64,000 bases of DNA from Pseudomonadota bacterium (lineage in GTDB: Bacteria; Myxococcota_A; UBA796; SXON01). The notes below the pieces were generated by a model, which was not told the origin of the DNA, did not search any database, and saw only the letters and a list, made by a program, of their open reading frames with translations. Made by a program: the position numbers and the translations under genes. Positions within the stretch are counted from its first letter, which is position 1; each line of letters opens with the position of its first letter. Positions 11,584-54,359 of this stretch are shown here, piece after piece. The stretch spans positions 142,855-206,854 of the forward strand of contig JAUXQH010000095.1 in NCBI GenBank assembly GCA_030685065.1, in the 5' to 3' direction.

Positions 11584-11639
11584 GCACGCCGACTTCGCGT
11601 GAACACTCCGGCAGCAGCGCGGGGACTCGCCCGATCCGG

Positions 11640-12704: not shown

Positions 12705-13555
12705 CTGCTGACCTCGCCTACTGGATCTTCGCCGCCTTCGCGGGCGTGTTCGGGCTGCTCTTCGGCTCGTTCCTCAACGTCTGCGTCGCGCGCATGCCAG
12801 AGGACCGCTCGGTGGTGTGGCCCGGCTCGGCCTGCCCCACGTGTGGCACCGCGATCAAGCCCTACGACAACGTGCCCGTGCTCGCGTGGATGTGGCTCGG
12901 CGGCAAGTGCCGGGCCTGCAAGCAGCCGATCTCGGCGCTCTATCCCACGGTCGAGGCGCTCTTCGGCGTGCTCACCTTCCTGCTCTTCCGCCGTGTCATC
13001 CCCGACCTCGCCTACATCGACACCGCCTACCTCGCGGCCTTCGTCTGGTACGGTTGGTTGTTGTTCGCGCTGGTGGCGCTCACCTTCATCGATCTGCGCC
13101 ACTACATCATCCCCGACGAGTTCAGCATCTACTCGGTGCCCGTCGGCGTCGCGGGTGCAGCCTTGCTCGGTTGGCTCGGGTACACCGGCGCCCCCACGTG
13201 GCAGGGTTCCGTGGTGGGGGCATTGGTGGGGGGCGGATTTCTCGCCGCGGTGATCGGCCTGTATTGGCTGGTGCGGCGGCAGGAAGGCATGGGCATGGGG
13301 GACGTGAAGCTCCTCGCCATGCTCGGCGCCTGGTTTGGTCCCGTCGCGATCTTCCCGATCCTGATGATGGCCTCGATCGCGGGCAGCATCGTCGGGGTCA
13401 CCCTGGCGATCAGCCGCCGATCGGGCCTCCAGCTCGCCCTCCCCTTCGGCCCGTTCCTGGCGCTCGCGGCGGCGATCTGGCTCTACGCCGGGCGGGTGCT
13501 GGAGCCGGCCGTGACCCTGCGGGTCGGCGCGTTGCTGGAGCTCTTCGGGAGCTGA
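12701..13555 (+). CDS. prepilin peptidase (A24 family, PilD/GspO type with N-terminal Cys4 zinc-binding motif)
   Basis: CPTCG...CRAC tetracysteine, polytopic membrane protein, catalytic region IIPDEFSIY...GMGMGDVKLLA. ATGA overlap with the aminotransferase stop at 12701-12704. Confidence 0.85.
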   Translation: MTADLAYWIFAAFAGVFGLLFGSFLNVCVARMPEDRSVVWPGSACPTCGTAIKPYDNVPVLAWMWLGGKCRACKQPISALYPTVEALFGVLTFLLFRRVIPDLAYIDTAYLAAFVWYGWLLFALVALTFIDLRHYIIPDEFSIYSVPVGVAGAALLGWLGYTGAPTWQGSVVGALVGGGFLAAVIGLYWLVRRQEGMGMGDVKLLAMLGAWFGPVAIFPILMMASIAGSIVGVTLAISRRSGLQLALPFGPFLALAAAIWLYAGRVLEPAVTLRVGALLELFGS

Positions 13556-38971: not shown

Positions 38972-40414
38972 TCAGAACCGGACCCGCCCCCCCACGCTCA
39001 CCATCGGGCCGTACAACTCCACGGGCTCCTGGTCCGCGTTGCCCCGCACCGACGCATAGCCGGCCCCGACACGGAGCCCGACGCTGCCCCGGTCGCCGTT
39101 GCCGCGCAGCCAGGAGCTAACGCCGCCTTCCACCCAGGTGGCGCCGGCGCGACCGGTGCCCCAGTCCACGAAGAGGTCCGTGCGGTCGCCGGTCGGGATC
39201 GCGAGCTCCATCGCGATCCCGCCGAACACGAACCCCTCCCCCTCGCTCACGGCGTAGGCGCCCTCGGTCTTGGTGGTCTCGTCCCAGGTGTACTCGACCC
39301 GGTAGGTCGGCGTGAGCAGCAGGGTGTTGCGGACGCCGACGCGCAGCCCGTCGCGCGCGCCGAGGCGGGCCTCCTGTACGAACGCGAAGGCGCGGTCGAC
39401 GTGGGGCACCGACACCTCGGGGGCGTCGGGGCCGGTCGGCAAGCCGCTGACGCCGGGGTCGCTGTCGAGCATCGACCAGCCGGCGCCCAGGCCTACCGAG
39501 AAGTAGCGGCTGTCGAAGCCGGCGGTGCCGAGCGCGGCGACGGTGAACGGGCTCCCCTCGCGGCTCCACCCCAGCCCGACCGGCGCGAGGCGGGCCTGCA
39601 CGTACCAGGGGGCGCGGAACACCCACGTCACCCAGAGCTCGTCCACCGTCGCGACGCCGACGGTCTGCAGGGCGAGGAGGGGGCGGATCACCAGCCCCAT
39701 CTCACGAAGCTCCCCGAGCCGCTCCGGCGCCACCGGGTAGACGTAGGCGCCGCGGTGCGGCTCGAGCCGATCCCCCACGTCCACCCGCCCGCCCCGTGCG
39801 AGGTCGACCAGGGCGCGGTGATCCTCGGTGAGGCGGACCCGCCCCGCCGCGACCACCCGCTCGACCGGGCGGCGCTCCATCCCGCGCATGTCGAGCGCCG
39901 GCACCACCCGCGTCTCGGCGCCGAGGAAGCGCACCTCGTCGCCCACGGCGAGCCCGTCGAGCGCGCCACGGTCGACCACCGCGACGCCGTTCCCCACCGT
40001 GAGCACCCGCGCGGGAGGCGCGGGCGCCGCCATCGGGGCCGAGCTCGGCGCGGGCTCCGGCGGCGTGCCCTCCGCGCCGGCCACCTCGGTCACCGGCACG
40101 GCGCGCGTCTCTCGCAGCTCGACCCACAACCGCCCGTCCGCCACGAACAGGCCCTCGGCCCCCGGCACCTCCCTCGTCGTGAGGAGCGCGGGCGGAGACA
40201 TCTCCCACGTCTCCAGCGCCCCCTCGGCGGTGAGCACGTACAGACGACCGCCCGCCTCCTGCGCCGCGCGCGGGGCGCGCGGGTACGTGGCGACCACCGC
40301 GCCATCCACCCGCACCTCTCCCCCGCTCAGGGTCACCTCCGCCGCCACCGCCGCCGCGATCCAGAGCCACATGGCGCCTCCGCCAGCAACGTAGGACCGA
40401 CGCATCGACCCCAA
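38972..40414 (-). CDS. hypothetical outer-membrane/secreted protein (signal peptide, C-terminal aromatic residue)
   Basis: MRRSYVAGGGAMWLWIAAAVAAEV signal. Gly/Val-rich beta-like C-terminal half ending ...MVSVGGRVRF (terminal Phe). Confidence 0.55.
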   Translation of the reverse strand: MGSMRRSYVAGGGAMWLWIAAAVAAEVTLSGGEVRVDGAVVATYPRAPRAAQEAGGRLYVLTAEGALETWEMSPPALLTTREVPGAEGLFVADGRLWVELRETRAVPVTEVAGAEGTPPEPAPSSAPMAAPAPPARVLTVGNGVAVVDRGALDGLAVGDEVRFLGAETRVVPALDMRGMERRPVERVVAAGRVRLTEDHRALVDLARGGRVDVGDRLEPHRGAYVYPVAPERLGELREMGLVIRPLLALQTVGVATVDELWVTWVFRAPWYVQARLAPVGLGWSREGSPFTVAALGTAGFDSRYFSVGLGAGWSMLDSDPGVSGLPTGPDAPEVSVPHVDRAFAFVQEARLGARDGLRVGVRNTLLLTPTYRVEYTWDETTKTEGAYAVSEGEGFVFGGIAMELAIPTGDRTDLFVDWGTGRAGATWVEGGVSSWLRGNGDRGSVGLRVGAGYASVRGNADQEPVELYGPMVSVGGRVRF

Positions 40415-40453
40415 GCGTTGGCTCCGGCGCGGATCAGCGGACGGATCCGGGCG

Positions 40454-40879
40454 TCAGCCTCCGGCCCGCTCCTTCGCGATCGCGGCGTCCACCCGCAGCT
40501 TGAGCGCCTCCAGATCCTCGCGCGCCGCGCCCTGCCCCGTGACGAACGGCGCGCCGCTCGTCTCCAACACCAGCCGGCTCCCGTCGATCCGCACCGCCCG
40601 GACCTGCTTCCACTCGACGCGGGAGCGCGCGGGCCCGATGAGCAGGTTCCGCAGCAGCCGCTCGTCCTCGACGACGAGCTTGCTGGAGATGACCCGGATG
40701 CGGCGGGTGCCGTACTGGTTGACGAGGACGATCAGGCCGACGACCGCGAGCCCCACCGCCGGGACGTAGTACGCGAGGTACGCGAGCGCCGCGGCGCCGC
40801 AGCCCAGCGCGATCCCGACCCCGACGGAAACGGGGTTCATCGGGAGGGGGCAGGAGATCCCGTCGTGGGTGATCGGCAT
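40454..40879 (-). CDS. hypothetical membrane protein (two TM helices plus bacterial PH-like domain); likely start MNPVSV at ~40840
   Basis: ...VGVGIALGCGAAALAYLAYYVPAVGLAVVGLIVLV... then RIRVISSKLVVEDERLL...EWKQVRAVRI, a bPH_2-like pattern. Confidence 0.5.
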   Translation of the reverse strand: MPITHDGISCPLPMNPVSVGVGIALGCGAAALAYLAYYVPAVGLAVVGLIVLVNQYGTRRIRVISSKLVVEDERLLRNLLIGPARSRVEWKQVRAVRIDGSRLVLETSGAPFVTGQGAAREDLEALKLRVDAAIAKERAGG

Positions 40880-40931
40880 GGCGACGCGCTATCCGATCGG
40901 GCGGCGGGGCGCCCGGAGCTCTACGTCGTCC

Positions 40932-41864
40932 TCAGACCTGCACCTTCACGATCCGCTTGATCATCCAGCCGCCGATGATCTGGAGCGTCAGCATCACGAA
41001 GATGAAGATCCATCCCAGCCACGTGGTCCAGAGCCGGGAGATGAGCTGGGGGTCCATCACCCACAGGATCCCGGCGAGCACGAACGGCATGAACACGATG
41101 ATCACGCCCTGCGCGATGCCCTGGGCGGTGAGGCTCTGGATGCGGCCCTGCACCTTCTTCCGCTCGCGGATGGTCTGGGCGACGGTGTCGAAGGTCTCCG
41201 ACAAGTTGCCGCCGGACTGCCGGAGGATGTTGATGCTCGTCACGATGATCTGGATGTCCTCGGTGCCGATGCGCTTCTCGAGGGCGAGCAGGGCGTCCTC
41301 GAGCGGCACGCCGAGGCGCTGCTCGTTGAGCATGAGCCCGAACTCCTGCGAGATCGGATCGGGCAGCTCCTCGCGCACCATGTCCATCGCCTGGAGCAGC
41401 GAGAGGCCGGACTTCAGGCCGTTCGACATGAACGCGAGCGCGTCCAGCAGCTGATCCTCGAAGCGGGCGACCCGGTTCTCCCACATCGTCTCGACCACGT
41501 AGCGGGGCAGTCGGTAGCCGACGGGCAGGCCGAAGGGGCCGATCACCAGCACGCCGATGACCATGACCCGGATGATGTGGTAGCCCCAGGGCTCGTACGG
41601 GATGCCGGTGGTGAGGAGCCAACCCGCGCTGCCGAACACCAGTACGGACCCGACGATCGAGGCGATGCACCAGCTCGCCGGGATCTGGAGGAACATGCGG
41701 TCGAACATGCCCTGCATCCACCGGACGTAGCCGTTGGTGGCGTTGTCGAAGCGGTCTCCGAACCAGGGCGCGGCGAACCACCCCACCATGAGCCACGCGG
41801 CGACCCCGGCGCCCGCGAACACGAGGCGAAAGGCGGTGAGGAGGTCCCAGATCTGCGGGAGCAT
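40932..41864 (-). CDS. Flp pilus assembly platform protein TadB/TadC-like (type II secretion system F family), single copy
   Basis: Real gene is the C-terminal 310 aa of track ORF 40932..44765, starting MLPQIWDLLTAF.... A T2SSF domain (...LKSGLSLLQAMDMVREELPDPISQEFGLMLNE...). The ATG overlaps the CpaE-CpaF stop by 1 nt (TGATG). Confidence 0.75.
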   Translation of the reverse strand: MLPQIWDLLTAFRLVFAGAGVAAWLMVGWFAAPWFGDRFDNATNGYVRWMQGMFDRMFLQIPASWCIASIVGSVLVFGSAGWLLTTGIPYEPWGYHIIRVMVIGVLVIGPFGLPVGYRLPRYVVETMWENRVARFEDQLLDALAFMSNGLKSGLSLLQAMDMVREELPDPISQEFGLMLNEQRLGVPLEDALLALEKRIGTEDIQIIVTSINILRQSGGNLSETFDTVAQTIRERKKVQGRIQSLTAQGIAQGVIIVFMPFVLAGILWVMDPQLISRLWTTWLGWIFIFVMLTLQIIGGWMIKRIVKVQV

Positions 41865-44098
41865 CAGGCGCGACCGCGCGGGATCGGCGCGTGCGAGGGC
41901 CCGGACGCACCCGAGGCGACGGCGCCCGGCCCCATCGGGGGCGCGGCGAAGATGCCACGGGGCAGCTCGATGCCGAGCGCGTCGAGCTTGCTCACGAACT
42001 TGGGGATGAACCCGGTCGCCATGTGCTGGCCGAGCACCTTGCGGTTCGAGTCGAGGCCCGTCTGCCTGAAGCTGTAGATCTCCTGGAGCGTGATGGTGTT
42101 GGCCTCCATGCCGGTCACCTCGGCCACGGAGATGACCTTGCGCGAGCCGTCCGACATGCGCGTGGTCTGCACCAGGATGTGCACGGCGCTCGCGATCTGC
42201 TCGCGGATGGCGCGGCTCGGCAGGTCGAGGCCGGCGAACATGACGAGCGTCTCGAGGCGGGAGATCGCGTCCCGCGGGGAGTTGGAGTGCACGGTCGTCA
42301 GCGAGCCGTCGTGACCGGTGTTCATCGCCTGGAGCATGTCGAGCGCCTCGGCGCCGCGGCACTCCCCGACCACGATGCGGTCGGGGCGCATGCGCAGGCA
42401 GTTCTTGACCAGGTCGCGGATCTTGACCTCGCCGATGCCCTCGATGTTCGGCGGGCGCGACTCCATGCGCACCACGTGGGGCTGCTTGAGCTGGAGCTCG
42501 GCGGCGTCCTCGACGGTGACGATGCGCTCGTCCTCCGGGATGAAGCTCGACAACACGTTGAGGAGCGTCGTCTTTCCGGAGCCCGTGCCGCCCGAGATGA
42601 GGATGTTGAGCCGCGCCTCCACACACGCGCGCAACAGGTCGGCGAGCTCGGGGGTGAACGCCCCGAAGCGCACCAGGTCGGCGACCTTGAAGGGCTCCTT
42701 CGCGAACTTTCGGATGGTGATCGCGGGGCCGTCGATCGCGAGCGGCGGGATGATCGCGTTCACGCGGCTGCCGTCCGGGAGGCGCGCGTCGACCATCGGC
42801 GACTTCTCGTCGATGCGGCGGCCGAGCGGCTGGACGATGCGCTCGATGACGGCGAGCAGCTGCTGATCGTCGGTGAACGAGAGGTTGGTCTTCTGGAGCT
42901 TGCCGCTGATCTCGACGAACACGTTGTCGCGCCCGTTGACCATGACTTCCGTCACGCGGTCGTCCGCGAGCAGATCCTCGAGGGGGCCGAGCCCGAGGGC
43001 CTCGTCGAGGACCTCCTTCACGATGCGCTTGCGGTCGGCGCGATCGGTGATGGTGCCGCCCTCCTCGTCGAGCACGCGCGAGATCGCGACCTCGGCGCGC
43101 TCGCGCAGGACCTTGTCGCGATCCTGGTTGTTCGCGAGTTCGCGATCCAGGCGCTTCAGATCCAACACTTCGACCAGGCGCTTGTGGATGAGCATCTTCA
43201 CGCCCGTGCGCGCGTCGATCTCGCCCTTGCGCGAGCCGCCGCGCCCGCCGCGGGACTTCATCCAGCCGGCGACCTCCTTCGCCTTGTCGTCGGCGATGAC
43301 CTGCCGACGCGCGTCGGTGACGCCCACGTCCTGGGGCCGCGCGAGCTGGCCGAGCTGATCGAGCACGCCCTTCTCCACGAGCTGGCGCGCGAGCTCGTCG
43401 TAGTGGCGCGTCAGCTTCTCGCGGGGGGCGTCGAGCACGAACGGCGTGCCGCGCGCCGCGTGCGTGGCGGTGAGCGTGTCGTCCTTCGGGAGCGTCACGA
43501 GCACCGGGCGGCCGAGGCGCCCCAACACGAGTTCCTTGGTGATCGGCCCGGCGGCGTCGAGGCGGTTGACGATGACCTTCACGAGCTGCTGCGGGAACTG
43601 GAGCTGCTGGAGCTGGTCGATCATCCGCCGGGTCGACTGGATGACGTTGAAGTCGGGCGTCGTGACCAGGAAGATGCCGCTCGACTTCTCCATCGCGGCC
43701 ACGCCGAACGGATCGACCCCCGCGCCGCAGTCCACCACGATGTAGTTGGCGAGCGGCAGGCAGAGCTCGAGCATCCGCTTCACGGCCTCGAGCGGCACCT
43801 TGTCGGCGGCGTCGGGAGAGGGGGCGATGGGCAGGAGGCCGAGCCCGGCGGGGTGGGCCGCGATGTAGGGCCCCACCGTTTCGGAGGTGAGCTGCTCGAG
43901 GTAGGGCGCGAAGTCGGCGATCGTCCGCACCTCGGTCAGGCCGAGGAGCGCGGCGCCATCGCCCGCGCCGGCGCGGTCGAGCTCGATCAGGAGCACGCGC
44001 TCCCGTGTCTCCTTGACGAAGGACAACGCGAGGTTGACCGCGAACGTCGTCTTGCCGACGCCGTCCCGTGCTCCGCCGACCGCGACCACGCGTGCCAT
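41864..44098 (-). CDS. fused CpaE/TadZ-like ParA/MinD-family ATPase (N-terminal ~270 aa) and CpaF/TadA secretion ATPase (C-terminal ~470 aa)
   Basis: N-terminus MARVVAVGGARDGVGKTTFAVNLALS (deviant Walker A). C-terminus ...ILISGGTGSGKTTLLNVL..., ...IVVGECRGAEALDMLQAMNTGHDGSLTTVHSNSP.. (T2SSE/VirB11 Walker A/B, His box). A single uninterrupted 744-aa frame. Confidence 0.8.
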   Translation of the reverse strand: MARVVAVGGARDGVGKTTFAVNLALSFVKETRERVLLIELDRAGAGDGAALLGLTEVRTIADFAPYLEQLTSETVGPYIAAHPAGLGLLPIAPSPDAADKVPLEAVKRMLELCLPLANYIVVDCGAGVDPFGVAAMEKSSGIFLVTTPDFNVIQSTRRMIDQLQQLQFPQQLVKVIVNRLDAAGPITKELVLGRLGRPVLVTLPKDDTLTATHAARGTPFVLDAPREKLTRHYDELARQLVEKGVLDQLGQLARPQDVGVTDARRQVIADDKAKEVAGWMKSRGGRGGSRKGEIDARTGVKMLIHKRLVEVLDLKRLDRELANNQDRDKVLRERAEVAISRVLDEEGGTITDRADRKRIVKEVLDEALGLGPLEDLLADDRVTEVMVNGRDNVFVEISGKLQKTNLSFTDDQQLLAVIERIVQPLGRRIDEKSPMVDARLPDGSRVNAIIPPLAIDGPAITIRKFAKEPFKVADLVRFGAFTPELADLLRACVEARLNILISGGTGSGKTTLLNVLSSFIPEDERIVTVEDAAELQLKQPHVVRMESRPPNIEGIGEVKIRDLVKNCLRMRPDRIVVGECRGAEALDMLQAMNTGHDGSLTTVHSNSPRDAISRLETLVMFAGLDLPSRAIREQIASAVHILVQTTRMSDGSRKVISVAEVTGMEANTITLQEIYSFRQTGLDSNRKVLGQHMATGFIPKFVSKLDALGIELPRGIFAAPPMGPGAVASGASGPSHAPIPRGRA

Positions 44099-45607
44099 CT
44101 ACTGCCGAACCTCGAGGAGGTTGAACTTCTCCTGGATCTCGCGGTTCGCGGTCGAGGACGACTCGTGGATCTGCGGGGTGATGAACACCAGGAACTGCTG
44201 CTTCTGCTTCTTGTAGTCCTTGGCGTTGTAGAAGCTGAACAGCCCCGCGGACTGGGCCGCGCTGTTCTCCGGGAGCCGGTTGTAGTCCACCCGGTCGCTC
44301 ACGCGCTGCAGGCCGCCGATGACGATGCTCTCGCCGGCGCGGGCGTATTGGGAGGTGGTGATGTCGGACTGGTCGATCGCGGGGTAGCCGTTGGTCCCGA
44401 CCTCGCCGAGCGAGGACACCTCGACCTTGATGTTCAGATCGACCTCGGAGCCCTGGGCGTACGGGGTCACGTCGAGGGTGATGCCCACCTCCTCGAAGAT
44501 GATGGTCTGCGTGCCGTTCTCGATGAAGACGAAGGGGATGCGCTGGCCCGAGAAGATGTGCGCGGTGTCGCCGCTCTTCACCGACACGGTGGGGTTCTCG
44601 AGGACGCGCGCGTAGCCGCTGCGCCGCGCCCGCTCGAGCCGGGGCAGGAGCGAGGTGATCGTGGCGGAGGCGGTGCCCTCGGCGGCCGACGCATCGAAGA
44701 AGTCGTGCAGGAAGTTGAACTGCACGCCGCCGTCGACCGCGAGCGGACTCCACTCCACGCCCCACGAGGTCACTAGCGACTTGGTCAGCTCGACGAAGTG
44801 CACGTTCATCACGATGGTCTCGGCGCGGCCGGGGATGCGGTCGACCTCGCGCACCTCCAGGACATTGACGACGTCGGGGTAGTAGGCCCGCGCGATCGCC
44901 TCGGCGCGCTTGCTCGCCATCTCCGAGTGCACGATGCCCTCGAGCATGATCTTCTTGCCGACGAGCCGTACGTTCACGCCGGGGGTGCCGATCTCCTTCT
45001 GGATCAGCGACGCGAGCAGGCGCTGGGCGATGGGCGAGAGGGTCACCATCGACTCGATGAGCGGCTCGCGCTCGTCGAGGTCCTGGACGCGCTCCAGCTC
45101 GTCATCCAGGCTCACCTCACCCTGGATGTACACGCGATCGTTCATGATCTTGAACGAGAGCCCCTCGATGTCGTCGAGGAGCGCCTGGACGTTCTTCATG
45201 ACCTTCGCGAGGTTGGCTGGGATGACGGTGATCTCGATCTCGTCGACCCGGGCGCCGCGCGTGTTGTAGAGGATGAGGTTGGTCGTGCCGACTTCGCGTC
45301 CGGCGACCAGGATCTGGCGGGCCTCGCGCAGCGGCACCACCTTCGCGATCTCGGCGGAGCCGACCGACACGTCCCCGAAGCTGTACGGGATGTCGATCGC
45401 CTGCTGCGTGTTGACGACGATGACCTGGTCGGGCACCTCTTCGGCCGCGTACGTGCCGGGCACGACCTGCGGCACCGCGAGCACCAGCGGCGCGAGGAGC
45501 GCGAGCGAGACGGCGGCGCGGGTGACCCAGGCGCGCACGAGGAGCGGCGCGGGGCGCACCGGGGCGCTCACAGCGCGGCCCATGCGGGGAATCACAGCGC
45601 GGCCCAT
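44099..45607 (-). CDS. Flp/Tad pilus secretin (CpaC/RcpA family)
   Basis: N-terminal signal (VSLALLAPLVLA), BON-like N-domains, C-terminal secretin domain (...VLENPTVSVKSGDTAHIFSGQRIPF...GITLDVTP...SIVIGGLQ...). Start at ATG 45607 (GGGGTGG upstream) or 45583. The N-terminal 260 codons of track ORF 44099..46384 are junk. Confidence 0.8.
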   Translation of the reverse strand: MGRAVIPRMGRAVSAPVRPAPLLVRAWVTRAAVSLALLAPLVLAVPQVVPGTYAAEEVPDQVIVVNTQQAIDIPYSFGDVSVGSAEIAKVVPLREARQILVAGREVGTTNLILYNTRGARVDEIEITVIPANLAKVMKNVQALLDDIEGLSFKIMNDRVYIQGEVSLDDELERVQDLDEREPLIESMVTLSPIAQRLLASLIQKEIGTPGVNVRLVGKKIMLEGIVHSEMASKRAEAIARAYYPDVVNVLEVREVDRIPGRAETIVMNVHFVELTKSLVTSWGVEWSPLAVDGGVQFNFLHDFFDASAAEGTASATITSLLPRLERARRSGYARVLENPTVSVKSGDTAHIFSGQRIPFVFIENGTQTIIFEEVGITLDVTPYAQGSEVDLNIKVEVSSLGEVGTNGYPAIDQSDITTSQYARAGESIVIGGLQRVSDRVDYNRLPENSAAQSAGLFSFYNAKDYKKQKQQFLVFITPQIHESSSTANREIQEKFNLLEVRQ

Positions 45608-45615
45608 GCGGGGAA

Positions 45616-46446
45616 TCAAAAGCCACCCCCTTCGATGACGCGGTAGCGGGGCCCGGAGCGATACCGGACCTGCTGGACCAGGCCGAGGGTCGAGGCGACG
45701 GTGGCGTGGTCGAGCGCGACCGGCTCGGGCATCTCCCACAACGAGCGGAGGCTGATCGTGAGGTCCCCGATCTGCTGGGCGAGCACCAGCTTCTGGGCCT
45801 CCGAGGGGCGCACGCCCACCGTGATGGTGGCGCTGTTGCCGAGCAGCTCCGAGGGGGATGGCTCCTTCTGGACCATCGGCTGGCCCTCGGGGGGCATGGT
45901 CACCACGTCCCGCGTCGTGATGCGGCCGATGTCGTCGACCACCGAGAGCACCCACACGTCCTGCATGACGGTGACGGTGCGCACGTCCGACTTCTCTCCG
46001 GTGCCGAAGTCGAAGGTGCCGAGGATGTCGACGTGGTTGCCGGGGCGGATGTGCCCGCCGACCGCGTTGAACACCGACACGTCGAGCGAGATGGCGCGCA
46101 GGCCCTTCGGCACGTAGAGCGCCAGCCCCGCCTCGTCGGCGGTCACGAGCTTGGTCGCGACGATCTGCTCCCCCGTGAGGATGGGGACGGCGCTGATCTG
46201 ATCGCGGATCAGCTCGGTCGACGTGAGCGCCTTGGGCTGTTGCCAGCGGCGCGGCACCTCCACGAGCTCCACCATGGTCTCGTCGAGCCGCACGTTGTCG
46301 AGGATGTCGCGCTTGGCCACGAGGGTCATCATCGGAGCGGTCTCGTAGAGGAGGTCCTGCTCGCGCTGGTGCACGTAGCGGCACTGCGCGAAGGTCGCGA
46401 CGAGCGCGACCACCAGGGCGAACAGGAACGCGCGGGGGTTCTTCAA
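45616..46446 (-). CDS. Flp pilus assembly protein CpaB/RcpC (SAF domain)
   Basis: N-terminal TM MKNPRAFLFALVVALVATFAQ, then a CpaB-like SAF/beta domain. The stop lies 8 bp from the secretin start. Confidence 0.75.
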   Translation of the reverse strand: MKNPRAFLFALVVALVATFAQCRYVHQREQDLLYETAPMMTLVAKRDILDNVRLDETMVELVEVPRRWQQPKALTSTELIRDQISAVPILTGEQIVATKLVTADEAGLALYVPKGLRAISLDVSVFNAVGGHIRPGNHVDILGTFDFGTGEKSDVRTVTVMQDVWVLSVVDDIGRITTRDVVTMPPEGQPMVQKEPSPSELLGNSATITVGVRPSEAQKLVLAQQIGDLTISLRSLWEMPEPVALDHATVASTLGLVQQVRYRSGPRYRVIEGGGF

Positions 46447-46522
46447 ACGGGCCTCGACGGGACAGAGAGGGCGAGTCTACGACATCTCGAGCGTGTGCGC
46501 TGCGAGCCTGTCGCGCGCCGTG

Positions 46523-46711
46523 CTACCGCTTGTCCCCGCTGCCATTGGCCGCGCCCGCGCCCACCAGCGTGCTCGCGTCGCTTCCGAGGTTGTCCATGCC
46601 CTCCGAGAAGCCCGGGATGAACGCGTAGGCCGCCACCGCGAGCCCCACGACGGCGACGCTGATCAAGAGGAAATACTCGGTGGTGGCCTGGCCACGGCGA
46701 CGACGGGTCAT
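46523..46711 (-). CDS. Flp-family type IVb pilin (Flp1)
   Basis: 62 aa: MTRRRRGQATTEYFLLISVAVVGLAVAAYAFIPG..., the G/xxxxEY Flp processing motif plus hydrophobic helix. Real gene is only the last 62 codons of track ORF 46523..47143. The ATG overlaps the CpaA stop (ATGA 46708-46711). Confidence 0.8.
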   Translation of the reverse strand: MTRRRRGQATTEYFLLISVAVVGLAVAAYAFIPGFSEGMDNLGSDASTLVGAGAANGSGDKR

Positions 46712-47199
46712 GGAGCTCCCCAGAGATTCGGCCAGGGTTGAAAGCGGGCGGCGATCACGCCGGCGGAGATGACGAGGGCGAAGATCATCTTCGTCGTGAC
46801 TTCGCGTTCGCCCTTGACCCAGAAGCGCCACACGTTGCCGAGGCGCCCCTTGGCGATGAGCACGATCAGCGCGACCGGGAAGTTGATGATCAGGCCCAGC
46901 AGGATGGCACGCACGATGGTCTCGGGCCCGACGAGCGCGCCCGCGGCCATCACCAGCTTCACGTCGCCGGGGTGGTAGGCGCCGCCGAACTTCCAGAGCA
47001 CGACGCCCACCGCGAAGGCCACGAGGAGGCCGAGCGCGCCATCGTAGAAGTGAGGGGCGAACAACGGCGCCATCAGGACGCCCGTGACCATCACCGGGAA
47101 CGTCAGCACGTTCTTGATCTTGCCGGTCGTCCAGTCGGTCCACATGGCGCCGAGGAGCAAGGCCAGGAGGACCGCATCGGGGGGGCCGAGGGGAGCCAT
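46708..47199 (-). CDS. Flp prepilin peptidase CpaA/TadV (short A24 peptidase, no zinc-finger)
   Basis: 163 aa: ...LGAMWTDWTTGKIKN...AYHPGDVKLVMAAGALVG..., conserved Asp motifs, 4-5 TM helices. Confidence 0.75.
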   Translation of the reverse strand: MAPLGPPDAVLLALLLGAMWTDWTTGKIKNVLTFPVMVTGVLMAPLFAPHFYDGALGLLVAFAVGVVLWKFGGAYHPGDVKLVMAAGALVGPETIVRAILLGLIINFPVALIVLIAKGRLGNVWRFWVKGEREVTTKMIFALVISAGVIAARFQPWPNLWGAP

Positions 47200-47361
47200 T
47201 CAGGGGTAGGGCAGCTGCACGGTGGTGCGGACGTTGTGGAACACGTCCTTCACGCCGTCGCCGAACGCGATGAAGCCGGCCGCGAGGCCGACCACGATCA
47301 CCGAGATGCCGAGCACGTACTCGACGAGGGATTGTCCGCGACGGGACCGACGGTCGTTCAT
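47200..47361 (-). CDS. Flp-family pilin (Flp2); absent from the ORF track
   Basis: Own translation: MNDRRSRRGQSLVEYVLGISVIVVGLAAGFIAFGDGVKDVFHNVRTTVQLPYP*. It has the GQSLVEY motif. Its stop directly abuts the CpaA start (47199). Its ATG overlaps the Flp3 stop (ATGA 47358-47361). Confidence 0.75.
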   Translation of the reverse strand: MNDRRSRRGQSLVEYVLGISVIVVGLAAGFIAFGDGVKDVFHNVRTTVQLPYP

Positions 47362-47513
47362 GGCATCTCCACGCGCGCGGCGACCCAGCCGGCGATCGTT
47401 CCCACCAGGGCTTCGAACGCGTCGTGCCAGACGTACCCGGCCAGCACCAGCGCGAACAGGATGCCGGTGACCCCGAGCATGGGCTCCACGGTGGACTGGC
47501 CGCGCAGGCTCAC
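47358..47513 (-). CDS. Flp-like pilin (Flp3), GTG start; variant motif GQSTVEP instead of ...EY
   Basis: In-frame V(M)SLRGQSTVEPMLGVTGILFALVLAGYVWHDAFEALVGTIAGWVAARVEMP*, the C-terminal part of track ORF 47358..47630. The start is uncertain: GTG 47513, or further upstream. Confidence 0.5.
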   Translation of the reverse strand: MSLRGQSTVEPMLGVTGILFALVLAGYVWHDAFEALVGTIAGWVAARVEMP

Positions 47514-47688
47514 GGGGACACGATCAGCATGAAGACCACAGCAAGAGATGTACCACGGCGCCCGACGAACCGGCGAGCGTGGCGCGGCCGGGATCGCAGG
47601 GGCCCCGCCGCGCTGGGAGCGGGGCCACACCGCGTCGCTGGGGCGCGCGGATCCCGGCGGCGCTGGGGCGGGGGAGTCGCAGCGCCGA

Positions 47689-48306
47689 CTATTCCCTGAG
47701 CCGGGCGGTGATCATCCCCATGTCCTCCGGCACGAGCGAGTGCATCACCGCGTCGAGAGGCTCGTCGTAGATGCGGAGGCGGTTGCGGAGCACGCCCTCC
47801 CGGAGCGCGCCGAGCTTGTCGGCGACGCGCAGGCTGGCCGAATTGGAGGGGACGACGAGGATCTCGAGGCGCTGCAAGCGGAGGGACTTGAACCCGAAGA
47901 TGGCGGCGCTGCGCGCGGCCGTGGTCGCGACGCCTCGATCCGACGCGGAGCTGCGCACCCAATAGCCGAGGTTTGCCGTCCGATGTAGGTCGTTCCGCAT
48001 GTTCAGGCCCACCCCGCCGAGGAGGTGATCGTCCGTGTCGACGATGGCGAACTCGTGCTTGGTGCAGGCGTCGAACGAACCCCGGGTGTCCTCGATCCAG
48101 GACTGCGCCTCGTCGAGGGAGTAGTCGGGGTGGGCCCACGGCATGAAGGGCGCGAGGTCGGGGATCGACTCCCGGACCGCCTCCACGAACTCGGCGGCAT
48201 CGTCCTCGCGGAAGGGGCGGATGCCGATCCCGCCGCTCCACAGCGGAAACGCCGGATCATCCACCATAGGTGTAGCGCGTGGCGATCCCGTAGAAGTACC
48301 CGGCAT
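47689..48306 (-). CDS. GNAT family N-acetyltransferase (RimJ/RimL-like)
   Basis: ...FAIVDTDDHLLGGVGLNMRNDLHRTANLGYWVRSSASDRGVATTAARSAAIFGF..., GNAT motif A. Confidence 0.75.
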   Translation of the reverse strand: MPGTSTGSPRATPMVDDPAFPLWSGGIGIRPFREDDAAEFVEAVRESIPDLAPFMPWAHPDYSLDEAQSWIEDTRGSFDACTKHEFAIVDTDDHLLGGVGLNMRNDLHRTANLGYWVRSSASDRGVATTAARSAAIFGFKSLRLQRLEILVVPSNSASLRVADKLGALREGVLRNRLRIYDEPLDAVMHSLVPEDMGMITARLRE

Positions 48307-49411
48307 AGTCGGTCTCGATCCGGAAGAAGTCAGCCGCGTAGCCCGATTCGTCCACGATGCGGTACACCGTCGGGAAAATCCCGCTCACGTTCGCGGTCAC
48401 GTAGAAGTCGCCGCTGTCCCCGTCGATGGCCACCTGGTACGGCGACCAGGTGTCGTCCGCCCAGCCCTCGACCAGGGCCCAGTCCCCCGCGTCCAGATCG
48501 AAGCGGTAGATGCCCATCGCCCCGGTGGTCGCGTCGGTGCCCTGCGTGTACCACCCGCCCCCGTCGCGATGCGTTCCCGACGAGGTCTGGAGCGTGGGGC
48601 TCTCGTAGTCGCCCTTGCGATGCACCACGAGCCCGCCCTCGGCGGTCCACGTGCCGAAGCCGCCGAAGTAGTCGAACAGCCCGACCTCCCCCGTCGCGGG
48701 GTCGACCGCGGCCGACACCCCGGTGAATTCGTGCGCGGCGGGGTCCTCGAAGTCCACGACCCAGCTCGCGAGCTCGGTGATCGTGCCGTCGGGGGCCACG
48801 CCCACCAGCGAGCCCACCGTGGTCGCGAGCACGATCCCGTCGAGCCCGAACCCGTCCGGCATCGTCGCGATGCCCCACACGCCGTACTCGTAGACCTCGG
48901 CGTCGGAGAAGTCCCCGATGTCGGTGCAGGTCCCATCGGAATCGACCATCGACACCGCCGCGCCGTTGTTGCTGATCACCCAGCCGTCTCCGTAGTGATC
49001 GAGCCAGCTCGGCCCGCAGCCGTTCGAGAGGTTCACGGTGTCGTCGTCGCGCCCGATCGTGTCGAGCACGATGATGGAGCCGGCGCCGTCATCATCCACG
49101 CGCCCGACGCTGAAGCCCGACCACTCCTCGTCGGTGCGCCCGTCGCAGTCGTTGTCCTTGCCGTCCCCGTCGTCCTCTTCTCGCGCGGGGGAGACGCGGA
49201 CGTCGGCGTCGTCGCAGTCTCCCTCCTCGGGGGTGAACCCGTCGTCGTCGAGATCCCCGTCGGTGTCGGCGGTGTCGATGGGGGTGGTGTCCGTGTCCGA
49301 GTCGTCGGTGTCCACCGGCTCGTCGGTGTCGGGCTTCTGAAAACCGGTGTCGAGCGCTGAGCAGCCGCCACCGCCGAGAGAGAGGATGACCACGAGGAGG
49401 GCGAATCGCAT
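48257..49411 (-). CDS. lipoprotein with Asp-Thr repeats and MopE-like Cys-rich motif (paralog family of 24961..26514)
   Basis: MRFALLVVILSLGGGGCS lipobox. DTDDSDTDTTPIDTADTDGD. CDDADVRVSPAREEDDGDGKDNDCDG. Confidence 0.75.
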   Translation of the reverse strand: MRFALLVVILSLGGGGCSALDTGFQKPDTDEPVDTDDSDTDTTPIDTADTDGDLDDDGFTPEEGDCDDADVRVSPAREEDDGDGKDNDCDGRTDEEWSGFSVGRVDDDGAGSIIVLDTIGRDDDTVNLSNGCGPSWLDHYGDGWVISNNGAAVSMVDSDGTCTDIGDFSDAEVYEYGVWGIATMPDGFGLDGIVLATTVGSLVGVAPDGTITELASWVVDFEDPAAHEFTGVSAAVDPATGEVGLFDYFGGFGTWTAEGGLVVHRKGDYESPTLQTSSGTHRDGGGWYTQGTDATTGAMGIYRFDLDAGDWALVEGWADDTWSPYQVAIDGDSGDFYVTANVSGIFPTVYRIVDESGYAADFFRIETDYAGYFYGIATRYTYGG

Positions 49412-49472
49412 CGCTGCATCTTAGCGGACGCTTACACTCAGGTCGCGCGGCGTACGGCCCGAGTGGTACGGC

Positions 49473-50498
49473 ATGCTCAGCCTCCTCTTCGCCGCCGCCC
49501 TCGCCGGGACCCCCACCCAGCTCTCCACGCCCGCGGTCTCCGTGACCACGGTCGAGGTCGAGGTCGATCCGTGGGCTCCGCCGCCGCCCCCTCCGCTTCA
49601 GCTCCCGGAGGACGGCTCTCGGCCCACCTGGGCCTCGCTCCCTCCCAACCCGCGCGGCCAGACGGACTTCACCGCCTACACCCTCGACTGGGGAGAGGTT
49701 CGCGTCGGCATCGGGAGCGTCGGCATCGCCCTCTTCCCCGGCGTCCAGCTCTCCACCCAGCCGCTCCTGGACGCGGTGCGGATGCCGAACGTGGCCTTGA
49801 AGATGGACCTCCTCCAGCTCGGCGACCGCTTCGACGGCGCCGTGAACGGCTCGCTCGGCCACATGCGGACGGACACGCTCAACGCGCTCTACGTCACCGC
49901 CGGCGGCACCGCGTCGGTCATCGTCACCCCCGCGTGGTCCCTGCACGGCGGCGCCCAGTGGACCTACGCCGCCGCGATCGGCGAGCCCGACCTGGCCGCC
50001 ACCGCCGAGGTCGTGGAGCCCCTGGTCGGGAACCTGCCCTCCGACGCGAGCCTCCAATACCTGTCCGAGCGGCTCGCGTACGAGGTCCGCATCGAGGCCG
50101 TCACGCTTCGCGCGGCCACGGACTTCCGGATCAATCGTCGCGACAGCATCATCCTGCAGGGCCAGGCCGTGCTCTGGGCATGGACCCGCTACCCGAACTA
50201 CGCCGAGCGCTTCGTGTCCGAGGAGTCCGGCTTCGTGCCGATCACGGACACCTACACCGCGAGCCTCGCGTGGCAATTCTCCTGGCGAAACGTCGACCTC
50301 CGGGTAGGGGGCGGCATCTCGTCGGTGCCGGGCGCGTGGCTGCTGAACACGGTCGATCTCGCGTGGCGCTTCGGCGGAAAGACGCGCGGGCACCAGGCGA
50401 AGCGGCTGCAGGCGTGGCGCGGCAGCAACAAGGTGGCGGCGGCGACGCGCCCCGAGGACGTCGCGACGGCGAAGCTGCTCTCCACCCCGAGCACCTGA
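49473..50498 (+). CDS. hypothetical secreted/outer-membrane protein
   Basis: Signal MLSLLFAAALAGTPTQ. Composition is beta-rich (W/Y/T) and ends ...AWRFGG before a basic tail. No family recognised. Confidence 0.55.
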   Translation: MLSLLFAAALAGTPTQLSTPAVSVTTVEVEVDPWAPPPPPPLQLPEDGSRPTWASLPPNPRGQTDFTAYTLDWGEVRVGIGSVGIALFPGVQLSTQPLLDAVRMPNVALKMDLLQLGDRFDGAVNGSLGHMRTDTLNALYVTAGGTASVIVTPAWSLHGGAQWTYAAAIGEPDLAATAEVVEPLVGNLPSDASLQYLSERLAYEVRIEAVTLRAATDFRINRRDSIILQGQAVLWAWTRYPNYAERFVSEESGFVPITDTYTASLAWQFSWRNVDLRVGGGISSVPGAWLLNTVDLAWRFGGKTRGHQAKRLQAWRGSNKVAAATRPEDVATAKLLSTPST

Positions 50499-50530
50499 AC
50501 ATCCGTACGCATCCCGGTTAAGCGCGCGCG

Positions 50531-52543
50531 ATGCCTCCCTTCCGCCTCGCCACCGACATGAAGCCCGCCGGTGATCAGCCCACGGCCATCGCCCAGCTCG
50601 TCGCCGGCCTCAACGGCAACCAGATGCACCAGGTGCTCCTCGGCGCGACCGGCACCGGAAAGACCTTCACCATCGCCAATGTCATCCAGGCCTACCAACG
50701 CCCGACGCTGATCATGGCGCACAACAAGACCCTCGCCGCGCAGCTCTTCGGCGAGATGAAGCAGCTGTTCCCGGACAACGCGGTCGAGTACTTCGTCAGC
50801 TACTTCGACTACTTTCAGCCCGAGGCCTACGTCCCCTCCTCCGACACCTACATCGAGAAGGACAGCCTCATCAACGAGCACATCGACAAGCTGCGCCACA
50901 GCGCCACGCGGTCGTTGCTCGAGCGGACGGACGTGATCATCGTCGCGTCCGTGTCTTGCATCTACGGCCTCGGCTCGCCCGAAGCCTACGACGGCATGGT
51001 CATCCCCATCGAGGTGGGGGACACCATCCCGCGGCGCACGCTGCTCTCCCGGCTGGTCGAGCTCCAATACCAACGGAACGAGCAGGATCTCCACCGTGGC
51101 ACGTTCCGCGCGCGGGGGGACGTGATCGAGATCGTGCCCGCCCACGAGAGCGAGAAGGCCTACCGCATCGAGCTGTTCGGGGACGAGGTCGAGGCCCTCT
51201 CCGAGATCGATCCCCTCCGCGGCGTCAAGCTCACCAAGCTCGACAAGATCTGCATCTACCCGGCGAGCCACTACGTCACGCCCAAGGAGAAGATGCAGCG
51301 CGCGATCGACTCGATCCGCACGGAGCTCCAGGAGCGCCTGGAGGACCTACGCGGCAAGGGCCTGCTCCTCGAGGCCCAGCGGCTCGAGCAGCGCACGGTC
51401 TTCGATCTGGAGATGATCGAGCAGCTCGGCTTCTGCAACGGCATCGAGAACTACAGCCGTCACCTGACGCAGCGGCCCCAGGGGCTGCCGCCCCCGACGC
51501 TCCTCGAGTACTTCCGCGGCGACTGGCTGCTGGTCATCGACGAGAGCCACGCGACGATCCCGCAGATCGGCAGCATGTACAAGGGTGATCGCGCGCGCAA
51601 GGAAACGCTCGTCAAGTACGGCTTCCGGCTGCCGAGCGCGCTGGACAACCGGCCGCTGATGTTCGAGGAATTCAACGAGCACATCCGCCAGGCCATCTAC
51701 GTCTCGGCCACGCCCTCGAAGTACGAGCTCGAAAAGGCGATGGGCATCGTGGCGGAGCAGGTCATCCGCCCCACCGGCCTGCTCGACCCGATCATCGAGG
51801 TGCGGCCCGCCTCGTCGCAGGTGGACGATCTGCTCGGCGAGCTCCGGGAGACCGTCGCGAAGGGCCACCGCGTGCTGGTCACGACGCTCACCAAGCGCAT
51901 GGCGCAGGAGCTCACGGACTACTACCAGGAGCTCGGGCTGCGGGTGAAGTACCTGCACTCCGACATCGACACGCTCGAGCGCATGCAGATCCTCCGGGAG
52001 CTGCGCCTCGGCGAATTCGACATCCTCGTCGGCATCAACCTGTTGCGCGAGGGGCTCGACCTGCCCGAGGTCGCGCTCGTCGCCGTGCTCGACGCGGACA
52101 AGGAGGGCTTCCTCCGCAGCGGCACGTCGCTCATCCAGACCATCGGGCGCGCCGCCCGCAACGTCGAGGGGCGCGTGATCCTGTACGCGGACAGGGTCAC
52201 CGACAGCATGGAGCTCGCGATGGGCGAGACCAGCCGGCGCCGCGTGAAGCAGATGGCCTACAACGACGAGCACGGCATCACGCCGATGACCATCATCAAG
52301 AACATGGACAGCCCGCTCGCCGCGCTGCTCGACGCCGACTACGTCAAGGTCCCGAAGAACGCCAAGGAGCTCGCGACGCTTCCGGGCGTCAGCATCGAGG
52401 CCATCCCGGGGCAGATCCGGCGGTTGCGCGCGGAGATGAAGACGGCCGCGTCCCAGCTCGAGTTCGAGCGCGCGGCCGAGCTGCGCGATCGCGTCCGCAA
52501 GCTCGAGGAGATGGCGCTGCAGATGGGCGAGATCGGAGGGTAG
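50531..52543 (+). CDS. uvrB: excinuclease ABC subunit B
   Basis: Unambiguous UvrB: [20 protein letters not shown], beta-hairpin region, helicase motifs DESH, VSATPS, and the C-terminal UVR domain ([15 protein letters not shown]). Confidence 0.97.
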
Positions 52544-53660: not shown

Positions 53661-54359
53661 TCAGTCCGCCCGCTTCCCGTCCCCGCAGAGCACCCGCACG
53701 TGGAGGTGGTCCTGGTGATGCGGCGCGTGCCGCAGGATGCCGGTGTGCTCCCAGACGGCGCGGGTGCCCTCGACCGGAAAGATCCGCGCAGCCTCCGCTT
53801 CGGTGAGGAGGCCCGCAGACTGCACGTAGGCGTGCAGGCGGTCGATGTGCTTGCGGTCGAGCAGGATGAAGTGTACGTTCCCCGTGGACAACATCGTGCT
53901 GATGAGGGTCCACGTGGCCTCGACGTCGAGCTCGGAGGGGGCGAGCTGGGTGAAGCCGCGGCTGTGCTGCCAGCCATCCTTCCGGTAGATCCCCACGTCC
54001 GCGTCGATCCCGCCGCGGTGCGAGAGGTGGCCGGCGAGGTAGCCGCCGTTCCGCGACGAGATGTCACCCACCACGAAGGGAGAAGCCTGGGGGAGCAGCC
54101 AGCTCATGTGGCGCCCCGCCTCGACCAGCAGGTCGACCATGGTTGCGGAGCCCCAGGAGCCGTTGGGCTGGGCCCGTACGTAGAAGAGCGGGAGGTCGGG
54201 GAGCAACACCCCGTCCTCGAGGTACTGATCGGAACAAGCGCTGCTTGCGCCGGTGTCATCGTTGACGGCCACCATTTCGGTCGCGAGCAGCTCCCCCTCG
54301 AGGGTGGGACCATACTCCGCGGCGAACGCCGTCATTGTGACGAACCAAGCCAAGGTCAA
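53661..54359 (-). CDS. penicillin-insensitive murein endopeptidase-like (MepA / peptidase M74-like)
   Basis: ...GDISSRNGGYLAGHLSHRGGIDADVGIY...HFILLDRKHIDRLHAY...HQDHLHVRV..., His/Asp metal-ligand pattern of MepA. Confidence 0.65.
   Translation of the reverse strand: MTLAWFVTMTAFAAEYGPTLEGELLATEMVAVNDDTGASSACSDQYLEDGVLLPDLPLFYVRAQPNGSWGSATMVDLLVEAGRHMSWLLPQASPFVVGDISSRNGGYLAGHLSHRGGIDADVGIYRKDGWQHSRGFTQLAPSELDVEATWTLISTMLSTGNVHFILLDRKHIDRLHAYVQSAGLLTEAEAARIFPVEGTRAVWEHTGILRHAPHHQDHLHVRVLCGDGKRAD

Follow-up and report, generated by a model that had tools for sequence, protein, structure and literature searches.

A compact eight-gene Tad/Flp pilus locus encoding a TadZ–TadA fusion protein and a single TadB-type platform protein

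Introduction

The Tad architecture closest to the one treated here has been reported for Bdellovibrio bacteriovorus, in which an 'atypical TadZA hybrid protein' joins a ParA/MinD-like TadZ, lacking the atypical receiver domain, to TadA; the protein is encoded in a tadZA-tadB operon, its TadZ part together with the linker binds the polar hub RomR, and the machine is needed for prey invasion (bioRxiv 10.64898/2026.07.08.737194, July 2026). Among the ten papers listed, out of 49 that contain the string 'TadZA', no earlier application of this name to a fusion protein was found. Here we analyze a locus with a fusion of this kind on the minus strand at positions 40932-47513 of a 64-kb stretch of DNA (64,000 nucleotides of contig JAUXQH010000095.1, assembly GCA_030685065.1), which as a whole is referred to as the window. 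A previous sequence-only reading had described a Tad/Flp pilus locus with three pilin genes and a CpaE-CpaF fusion protein at this position, and had suggested that it could be a variant of a myxobacterial prey-killing machine. We consider it likely that the locus, with its eight translationally coupled genes, forms a self-contained operon for a Tad/Flp (type IVc) pilus of a 'TadZA-TadB' subtype; its transcription probably depends on a sigma-54 promoter that precedes the first pilin gene.

Two other kinds of machine serve as references. The canonical Tad/Cpa systems are those of Aggregatibacter actinomycetemcomitans (flp-tadV-rcpCAB-tadZABCDEFG) and Caulobacter crescentus (pilA-cpaA-H). The Kil apparatus of Myxococcus, a Tad-like machine for contact-dependent prey killing, has as its defining features an ATPase whose N-terminus carries an FHA domain, several FHA accessory proteins, two platform proteins, a division of the genes between two clusters, and a short secretin devoid of N-terminal domains; its pilins comprise the major pilin KilP, the adapters KilK and KilO, and dispersed KilL/M/N tip complexes (Seef 2021, PMC8460266; Herrou 2025, PMC12075869). 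Our comparisons with the Kil ATPase KilF and with TadZA of B. bacteriovorus rest on the published descriptions and not on the sequences.

Results

The locus consists of eight tightly packed Tad/Flp genes, which follow each other from 5' to 3' in the order Flp3, Flp2, TadV/CpaA peptidase, Flp1, RcpC/CpaB, RcpA/CpaC secretin, TadZA (744 amino acids), and TadB-type platform. As read directly from the sequence, Flp3 and Flp2 as well as the peptidase and Flp1 genes are joined by ATGA overlaps (47358-47361 and 46708-46711, respectively), Flp2 abuts tadV at 47199/47200, the secretin gene abuts tadZA in a TAG-ATG junction at 44099/44098, and tadZA and tadB overlap in a TGATG at 41862-41866; the sole sizeable gap inside the operon, between Flp1 and rcpC, measures 76 nucleotides. 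Domain matches and these junctions bear out the identification, the gene order, and the gene coupling given by the sequence-only reading, and all the junctions it had named (ATGA at 47358 and 46708, the abutment at 47199/47200, TGATG at 41864) are present. The earlier observation of a real Tad/Flp system is thus confirmed.

The cassette has a size of 6.6 kb, and its eight-gene order is kept in nine related loci, whereas the flanks are unrelated. Judged by the identity of their TadZA to that of the window, these are L001 (94%; from a metagenome-assembled genome (MAG) labelled Myxococcota), the P0009 locus (83%), L002 and L003 (75%), L005 and L085 (68%), and, more remotely, L086 (62%), L087 (60%), and L044 (59%).

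With the canonical Tad/Cpa systems the locus shares the order of pilin, peptidase, RcpC, secretin, TadZ, TadA, and TadB, as well as prepilins with a G/XXXXEY motif, a short A24 peptidase, and a CpaF-type motor. It differs from them in that TadZ is fused to TadA and has no receiver domain, that one platform gene is found instead of TadB plus TadC, that TadD, TadE, TadF, TadG, and RcpB are missing, that the peptidase gene lies between pilin genes, and that the predicted mature pilins always begin with Gln after leaders of 4-9 residues. The presence of three pilin genes, the peptidase between them, the fusion, and the single platform gene had been singled out as atypical, and this holds in comparison with Aggregatibacter and Caulobacter; however, these features are not unique, as they recur in relatives, and a peptidase gene between pilin-like genes is also present in distant relatives of the locus.

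In B. bacteriovorus, too, a receiver-less TadZ, a flexible linker, and TadA are combined in one polypeptide, tadB follows directly downstream without an adjoining tadC, and rcpC and rcpA lie directly upstream, a position that is seen in related Bdellovibrionota MAG loci. The Bdellovibrionota TadZA proteins are full-length homologues of the window TadZA with 42-51% identity. In contrast to the tad loci of B. bacteriovorus, which have no TadV and share PilD, our locus has its own TadV; it has one RcpC and no TadE/F/G-type minor pilins, whereas B. bacteriovorus has TadE/F/G minor pilins; and it is distinguished by the Walker A sequence GARDGVGKT (GGKGGVGKS in the distant Bdellovibrionota-type fusions), a C-terminal PRGR tail, and a sigma-54-type promoter-like element. 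RomR binding, the polar position of the machine, and a predation role are known from experiments in B. bacteriovorus only. In a neighbor-joining tree of TadA domains, the window clade and the Bdellovibrionota were not clear sisters, the deep branching was unresolved, and fused and unfused forms were interleaved. The fusion architecture is already reported in Bdellovibrio and is widespread, and the locus is a compact variant of the TadZA-TadB subtype with its own peptidase, Flp-sized pilins only, and a conserved sigma-54-type element.

The fusion protein is encoded by a 744-codon open reading frame (ORF) that spans 41864-44098 and covers a Pfam CbiA/ParA-type domain (residues 3-210) and a T2SSE domain (residues 368-647). 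The TadZ-like domain (residues 1-250; 43349-44098) has a ParA/MinD fold and the Walker A motif GARDGVGKT; it is followed by a basic linker (residues 251-295; 43214-43348), which is modeled with low confidence (predicted local distance difference test, pLDDT, 55-78) and contains a conserved K-x-RG(S/G)K motif, and then by the TadA/CpaF motor (residues 296-718) with a disordered tail (residues 719-744) that ends in PRGRA (41864-43213, stop codon included; all three parts on the minus strand). The motor part matches the CpaF structures of C. crescentus (8rjf, 8rkd, 9e24) with an E value of 1e-129 and, when compared by fold using Foldseek, with an E value of 7e-34 and 47% identity; the family alignments show no variation in its Walker A motif GGTGSGKTT, its Walker B region, or its His box. 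A side observation concerns the very end of the protein: a PRGR[A/R/P] motif terminates the TadZA tail (window 41867-41944) throughout the clade and is absent from the Bdellovibrionota-type fusions.

The TadZ domain was modeled by AlphaFold with a pLDDT of 91-97. Its best solved relative is the Chlorobium tepidum ParA-family ATPase 3ea0, found with an E value of 1e-17 by sequence (MinD: 3e-10) and with a template modeling score of 0.90-0.92 by fold (MinD: about 0.85). Both are ParA-like domains without a receiver domain, and they superimpose with a root-mean-square deviation of 2.0 Å, but 3ea0 stands alone, unfused, and its TadZ-type Walker A motif KGGDGGS has no P-loop Lys, whereas the TadZ domain described here keeps GK[T]. 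Its Walker A motif (residues 7-17; window 44050-44080) reads GARDGVGKT across the window clade, which means that the P-loop Lys is kept and that Arg-Asp replaces the Lys-Gly of MinD. When residues 1-300 were compared with 1.8 billion representative proteins, the fusion family itself came first, and then proteins of about 400 residues that were matched at their residues 140-385. The nearest non-fused relatives that we scanned (402-409 amino acids) had a receiver and a ParA-like domain in four of four cases, which is the CpaE/TadZ architecture. According to Pfam, the alignment, and the model, there is no receiver domain in TadZA, which begins right at the Walker A motif. The assignment of the N-terminal part to CpaE/TadZ is therefore supported by its ParA-like domain and by its CpaE-type nearest relatives, but not in respect of the N-terminal receiver domain.

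That an assembly or sequencing artefact has joined separate cpaE and cpaF genes is so improbable that it can be neglected. Such an error would have a plausible starting point, since TadZ-like and TadA genes adjoin but are separate in relatives from Chloroflexota and Dormibacterota, and in related loci. However, the independent Logan assembly of SRR13727519 is identical to window 42484-48272 without a mismatch, fusion junction included, more than 100 clusters of TadZA homologues from many studies are full length (49-94% identity), the linker holds conserved residues, and experiments have been carried out on the fusion protein of B. bacteriovorus (bioRxiv 10.64898/2026.07.08.737194). The 744-residue CpaE-CpaF fusion of the sequence-only reading is real, with no stop codon or frameshift between its parts. 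An exact-sequence look-up of the protein matched no record. Among the fetched loci, 84 had a match to TadZA, and in 62 of these, from at least six phyla, both domains lie in one uninterrupted ORF; the fusion was found in many Bdellovibrionota MAGs, the window clade, Acidobacteriota, Elusimicrobia, Endomicrobia, Eremiobacterota, and others. In one homologue (protein P0100, 1017 amino acids, from one contig), TadZ, TadA, and the TadB platform are even contained in a single ORF. As tadZA and tadB normally overlap by 1-4 nucleotides, this triple fusion could be a one-base assembly error, or it could be a real further fusion.

The TadB-type inner-membrane platform is encoded at 40932-41864 on the minus strand and comprises 310 amino acids with one Pfam T2SSF domain (residues 143-267, E value 5e-20). 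In the canonical loci L076, L079, L080, and L082, the protein matched the product of the first platform gene, at the TadB position, with E values of 1e-38 to 5e-50, and that of the second, at the TadC position, with only 2e-4 to 4e-7. A hidden Markov model built from TadB- and TadC-type sequences was used to survey T2SSF genes within 8 kb on either side of each locus. Exactly one T2SSF gene was present in 47 fused loci, which comprise every fused locus of the Bdellovibrionota- and Myxococcota-like groups that is not truncated at a contig end, and an adjoining platform pair was present in nine fused loci of other phyla and in most unfused loci. Larger TadE/F/G-like pilins were found neither in the window nor in the clade loci L001, L002, L005, and L044, whereas in the relatives from Bdellovibrionota, Acidobacteriota, and Elusimicrobia such TadE/F-like genes belong to the locus, and the peptidase gene again lies amid genes for pilins.

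The three pilin genes lie on the minus strand as well. Flp1 (46523-46711) is a Flp-type prepilin of 62 amino acids with the sequence RRRG/QATTEY, the slash marking the predicted cleavage site, and a Gly/Ser-rich tail ending in GDKR; Flp2 (47200-47361) is a Flp-type prepilin of 53 amino acids with RRG/QSLVEY and an invariant C-terminal P-[YF]-P; and Flp3 (47358-47513) is a pilin-like, fast-evolving protein of 51 amino acids with a GTG start codon and the leader MSLRG, which is followed by QSTVEP and a hydrophobic helix. The three small ORFs look coding because of their G+C content at third codon positions (0.89-0.92, with 0.92 for Flp3 and 0.91 for Flp2, in a genome of roughly 70% G+C), because an independent gene caller predicted identical products of 51, 53, and 62 amino acids on the independent assembly, and because they have orthologues in related loci. 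This includes Flp2, which had been proposed as a gene although it was absent from the ORF track: it was called independently and is conserved in eight loci. An identical copy of Flp1 (100%) is annotated as 'hypothetical protein' in the NCBI MAG with the locus tags Q8P18_, where the window belongs to a contig of 315,205 bp.

Flp1 and Flp2 can be regarded as robust Flp-type pilins as far as can be judged from their sequences. In both, about 20 hydrophobic residues follow the G/XXXXEY motif, and this motif is kept in eight loci; the two are mutually recognizable paralogues (phmmer, 2e-6), and the 16 Flp1/Flp2 sequences compared share the basic leader, Gln+1, and Glu+5 without exception. Their fixed C-termini differ between the families, with GD[KMV]R in Flp1 and P[YF]P in Flp2. 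Flp3 most likely serves as a minor, priming, or adapter subunit, or is decaying, because its motif varies or is lost, because it changes faster, and because a residue other than Tyr follows Glu+5. The motif reads GQSTVEP both in L001 and in the window, but GQSSLEP in L002 and GQSSVEG in L005, and both its Gly and Glu are gone in the L085 orthologue. The synonymous/non-synonymous codon differences to L001 are 8/15 for Flp3, compared with 17/11 for Flp1 and 13/8 for Flp2. In L044 and L086, a Flp1-like paralogue holds the Flp3 position, and L087 yielded no Flp3. TadE/F-like proteins of distant relatives likewise have a residue other than Tyr after Glu+5. The claim of three Flp pilins therefore stands for Flp1 and Flp2, but Flp3 can only be called pilin-like; likewise, the conservation in orthologous loci, on which the reality of the small genes had been made dependent, is given for Flp2 but is incomplete for Flp3.

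Two further observations concern the pilin-like proteins encoded beside fused TadZA proteins in general. The residue after the cleavage-site Gly is Gln in most of them, and in all those of the window clade; in model Flp pilins, Ala or Val is found at this position. The weak profile matches of these proteins are confined to the archaeal 'Class III signal peptide' model.

The TadV/CpaA-type prepilin peptidase (46708-47199, minus strand; 163 amino acids; Pfam Peptidase_A24, 5.9e-11) is a short form without methyltransferase domain and is kept in all loci of the clade. Its sequence contains Asp22 in TDW...IKN and Asp79 in PGDVKL, which we take to be the two catalytic Asp positions of the A24 peptidase family. 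The periplasmic alignment protein RcpC/CpaB (45616-46446, minus strand; 276 amino acids) matches Pfam RcpC at 8.7e-21 and the NCBIfam model TIGR03177 (pilus_cpaB) at 1.7e-38 with 132 bits, the cut-off being 71. Sequence comparisons gave no relatives with solved structures for RcpC and TadB. The RcpA/CpaC secretin (44099-45538, minus strand) has T2SS-T3SS_pil_N, BON, and Secretin domains in Pfam and matches RcpA (8odn) and PilQ in the PDB at about 1e-11. Its start was set at GTG 45538 by homology with L001, and ATG 45607 was called on the Logan contig. A perfect tandem duplication of 24 nucleotides (45568-45618; 2.1 copies) spans the rcpC stop codon and creates two alternative in-frame ATG starts for rcpA, in front of the secretin signal peptide. 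This duplication is not present in the 94%-related L001, where rcpC and rcpA are spaced by 2 nucleotides.

Ahead of the first pilin gene, with a distance of 26 nucleotides to the Flp3 start codon, positions 47540-47555 of the minus strand hold a sigma-54-type -24/-12 promoter-like element, TGGTACATCTCTTGCT, which fits the sigma-54 consensus (GG-N10-GC). The pattern TGGYAC-N5-TTGCW has one match in the 64-kb window, with 0.05 expected by chance. In L001, L044, L086, and L087, TGG-N8-TTGCW is found 40-55 nucleotides upstream of the first pilin gene (L001:4594, L044:4569, L086:4419, L087:4845), and in each of these loci (9.5-18 kb) it is the only match on the same strand, at a background of 0.05 per kb. 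The conservation of a sigma-54-type element before the first pilin gene in five loci, the window included, is new here, and the element may well act as a promoter. A scan for sigma-70 promoters yielded no sites. An attenuator or terminator in the 76-nucleotide gap between Flp1 and rcpC was considered and dismissed, as the fold energy equals that of shuffled sequences (z = 0.01) and the gap is poorly conserved, and a search for RNA families and riboswitches across 40000-50600 gave nothing meaningful.

None of the flanking genes is Tad-related. Above the cassette, in window coordinates, they encode a GNAT acetyltransferase, a lipoprotein with a MopE motif, and UvrB, and below it a 141-residue membrane protein, a 480-residue protein without assigned role, a sulfatase, and a MASE1-PAS histidine kinase. 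The predicted lipoprotein (48257-49411, minus strand; 384 amino acids) has an LGGGGC lipobox and an acidic MopE-like metal-binding motif but no other Pfam match. It lies directly upstream of the cassette only in the closest loci (L001:2752-3906; L002:3482-4600, L002/3), and in L002 there is an overlap between its stop codon and the start of Flp3. We rejected it as part of the system, because it is upstream only in L001, L002/3, and the window, and we likewise rejected the 141-residue membrane protein (40454-40879), which is conserved in L001 only. A protein of 232 amino acids with a partial match to Peptidase_M74, a murein endopeptidase family, is encoded about 6 kb from the cassette (53661-54359, minus strand) and is probably unrelated to it.

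Other genes take these places in the relatives. In L005 and L085, genes for a PilT-like retraction ATPase and a ThiS-like protein lie directly upstream of the pilin genes (L005:3139-4278; L085:3292-4383) and replace the lipoprotein and GNAT genes, and in L086 and L087 a divergently oriented Ser/Thr protein kinase gene is found upstream of the pilin genes. In L004, a low-GC relative with 50% TadZA identity on a 2.98-Mb contig, a gene for an RHS-repeat/YD-shell protein (11080-12819) directly follows tadB. RHS proteins usually bear toxin domains, and in view of this the gene would fit a contact-dependent role in that lineage.

Discussion

If the cassette works as its components suggest, the aspartyl peptidase TadV would cleave the short basic leaders of 4-9 residues after Gly, thereby exposing Gln+1 and Glu+5 on Flp1 and Flp2, the mature forms of which would have 44-55 amino acids; either of the two could be the major pilin and form the fiber. 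A TadA hexamer docked on the TadB platform would then pull the pilins from the inner membrane and polymerize them, with RcpC as the aligner of the machine in the periplasm and the RcpA secretin as its channel through the outer membrane. The receiver-less ParA/MinD-like TadZ domain, which is tethered to each TadA by a flexible basic linker, would position or scaffold the motor, probably via a separate polar hub, by analogy with RomR and TadZA of B. bacteriovorus. Flp3, with its non-Tyr residue after Glu+5 as in pseudopilins, would most likely be a minor, priming, adapter, or degenerating subunit. The resulting pilus would presumably mediate adhesion or contact with surfaces; it might also act in prey contact, although nothing supports this.

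Several observations weigh against a self-contained Tad/Flp pilus operon with a sigma-54 promoter. The machine may be incomplete without genes encoded elsewhere, since there is no second T2SSF gene (TadC) in the 64-kb window, and Pfam scans of 30 ORFs of the window revealed neither TadE/F/G-type minor pilins nor a TadD pilotin or RcpB. The ATPase activity of the TadZ domain is uncertain, because Arg-Asp is found where MinD has Lys-Gly. Furthermore, Flp1-3 stay below the threshold of every Flp model of Pfam and NCBIfam, and the Pfam models Flp_Fap (PF04964) and Flp1_like do not match them even at E ≤ 10; the sole profile matches are sub-threshold ones to 'Class III signal peptide' (Flp1, E = 0.049; Flp3, E = 0.22), and the Flp of the distant relative L004 has weak Flp_Fap and Flp1_like matches. 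Our Flp assignment is therefore based on motif, size, context, and conservation. As to regulation, the element is missing at the respective position in L002, L005, and L085, where another gene abuts the first pilin gene, and no sigma-54 activator with a GAFTGA motif is encoded in the window.

The alternative that we take most seriously, even though we give it somewhat less than an even chance, is that the cassette is not self-sufficient, that a TadC partner and TadE/F/G-type minor pilins are encoded elsewhere, and that the minimal appearance reflects gene dispersal. In B. bacteriovorus, tadC is found at a separate locus, and tadG and further tad genes are also unlinked from tadZA-tadB (bioRxiv 10.64898/2026.07.08.737194). 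The claim that there is only one TadB/C homolog thus holds for the locus and for the 64-kb window but may fail genome-wide, and a single platform gene in the locus is no proof of a single platform protein in the cell. Dispersal would also agree with the single T2SSF gene in each of the 47 fused loci of Bdellovibrionota and the window clade, with fused loci of other phyla keeping TadB and TadC side by side; in addition, the tip-pilin clusters of Myxococcus Kil are scattered, too, and priming of assembly generally needs minor pilins (Herrou 2025, PMC12075869). On the other hand, neither a second T2SSF gene nor a gene for a large pilin-like protein is present in the window, the eight-gene unit is intact in unrelated contexts, as would be expected of a functional module, and the TadE/F-like genes of distant relatives lie inside the locus, so that their absence here looks like a loss. 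A TadB-only machine also has a precedent, as TadC has been lost in some actinobacterial Tad systems (Denise et al. 2019). Nevertheless, we regard it as rather doubtful that the locus encodes a Tad machine that is truly minimal for a diderm, in which the platform would consist of TadB only, TadC would be absent from the whole genome, TadE/F/G-type minor pilins would be lacking, Flp1 or Flp2 would form the fiber, Flp3 would be primer or adapter, and the motor would bring along an ATPase domain for its positioning.

We consider it improbable that the locus encodes a variant of the Kil machine of Myxococcus, as had been suggested. Both are Tad-derived, with a single ATPase that has an extra N-terminal domain, several Flp-sized pilins, and a short prepilin peptidase, and TadD, TadG, and RcpB are missing here as they are in Kil (Seef 2021, PMC8460266). 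The several Flp-sized pilins recall KilP and the 59-residue adapters KilK and KilO (Herrou 2025, PMC12075869), so that, as far as Kil is known by description, the three Flp-sized proteins could parallel a major pilin and its adapters, but no larger pilins of the KilL/M/N kind are encoded in the window. The Tad system of B. bacteriovorus has been placed among 'Kil-like' systems of predatory lineages only (Seef 2021, PMC8460266), and TadZA homologues with 42-51% identity come overwhelmingly from Bdellovibrionota. The myxobacterial premise itself is soft: relatives are labelled Myxococcota, Myxococcales, or Deltaproteobacteria, but the source, an uncultured MAG, is labelled 'Pseudomonadota bacterium' at NCBI, so that the taxonomic labels conflict, and there is no named cultured species among the best 120 UvrB matches (all with at least 68% identity, most rows being without source name). 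Against a Kil variant stands that KilF has an N-terminal FHA domain, whereas the ATPase described here has a ParA/TadZ domain and no FHA match; moreover, no FHA-domain proteins are encoded within 8 kb on either side of L001 or by the 30 scanned ORFs of the window. Kil further has the two platforms KilG and KilH, two clusters, four dispersed tip-pilin clusters with KilL/M/N, and a short secretin without N-terminal domains, whereas we find one platform gene, a single cassette without large pilins, and a secretin with pil_N and BON domains. Members of the fusion family also occur in groups that are not known to be predators, namely Acidobacteriota, Elusimicrobia, Endomicrobia, and Eremiobacterota. 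The comparison with the published Kil clusters thus revealed no testable Kil-defining feature in the locus, and a specific tie to the Myxococcus prey-killing machine is not supported. Less probable still is that the genes encode not an adhesive pilus but a short pseudopilus that acts as a secretion device similar to a type II secretion system (T2SS), for example for the upstream lipoprotein. Secretion has been raised as a possibility for Kil (Seef et al., PMC8460266), and the MopE-motif lipoprotein gene is immediately upstream in L001, L002/3, and the window, overlapping the Flp3 start in L002. However, the lipoprotein is missing from L005, L044, and L085-L087, the cassette has no candidate substrate that is conserved along with it, every component is of the Tad type, and parts specific to the T2SS (GspL/M/C) were not seen.

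The reading as a Tad/Flp pilus operon of the TadZA-TadB subtype does not overturn the current understanding of Tad systems. The fusion is no peculiarity of predators, given its presence in 62 of the 84 TadZA-matching loci and in at least six phyla. The conserved sigma-54 element offers a concrete handle on regulation. The 6.6-kb cassette, which seems to include all parts between a putative promoter and the platform, would lend itself as a handy minimal system to the reconstitution of a Tad pilus in a different host, and it could inform on the covalent coupling of TadZ to the motor, on the function of TadB without TadC, and on the replacement of pseudopilins by Flp-sized subunits.

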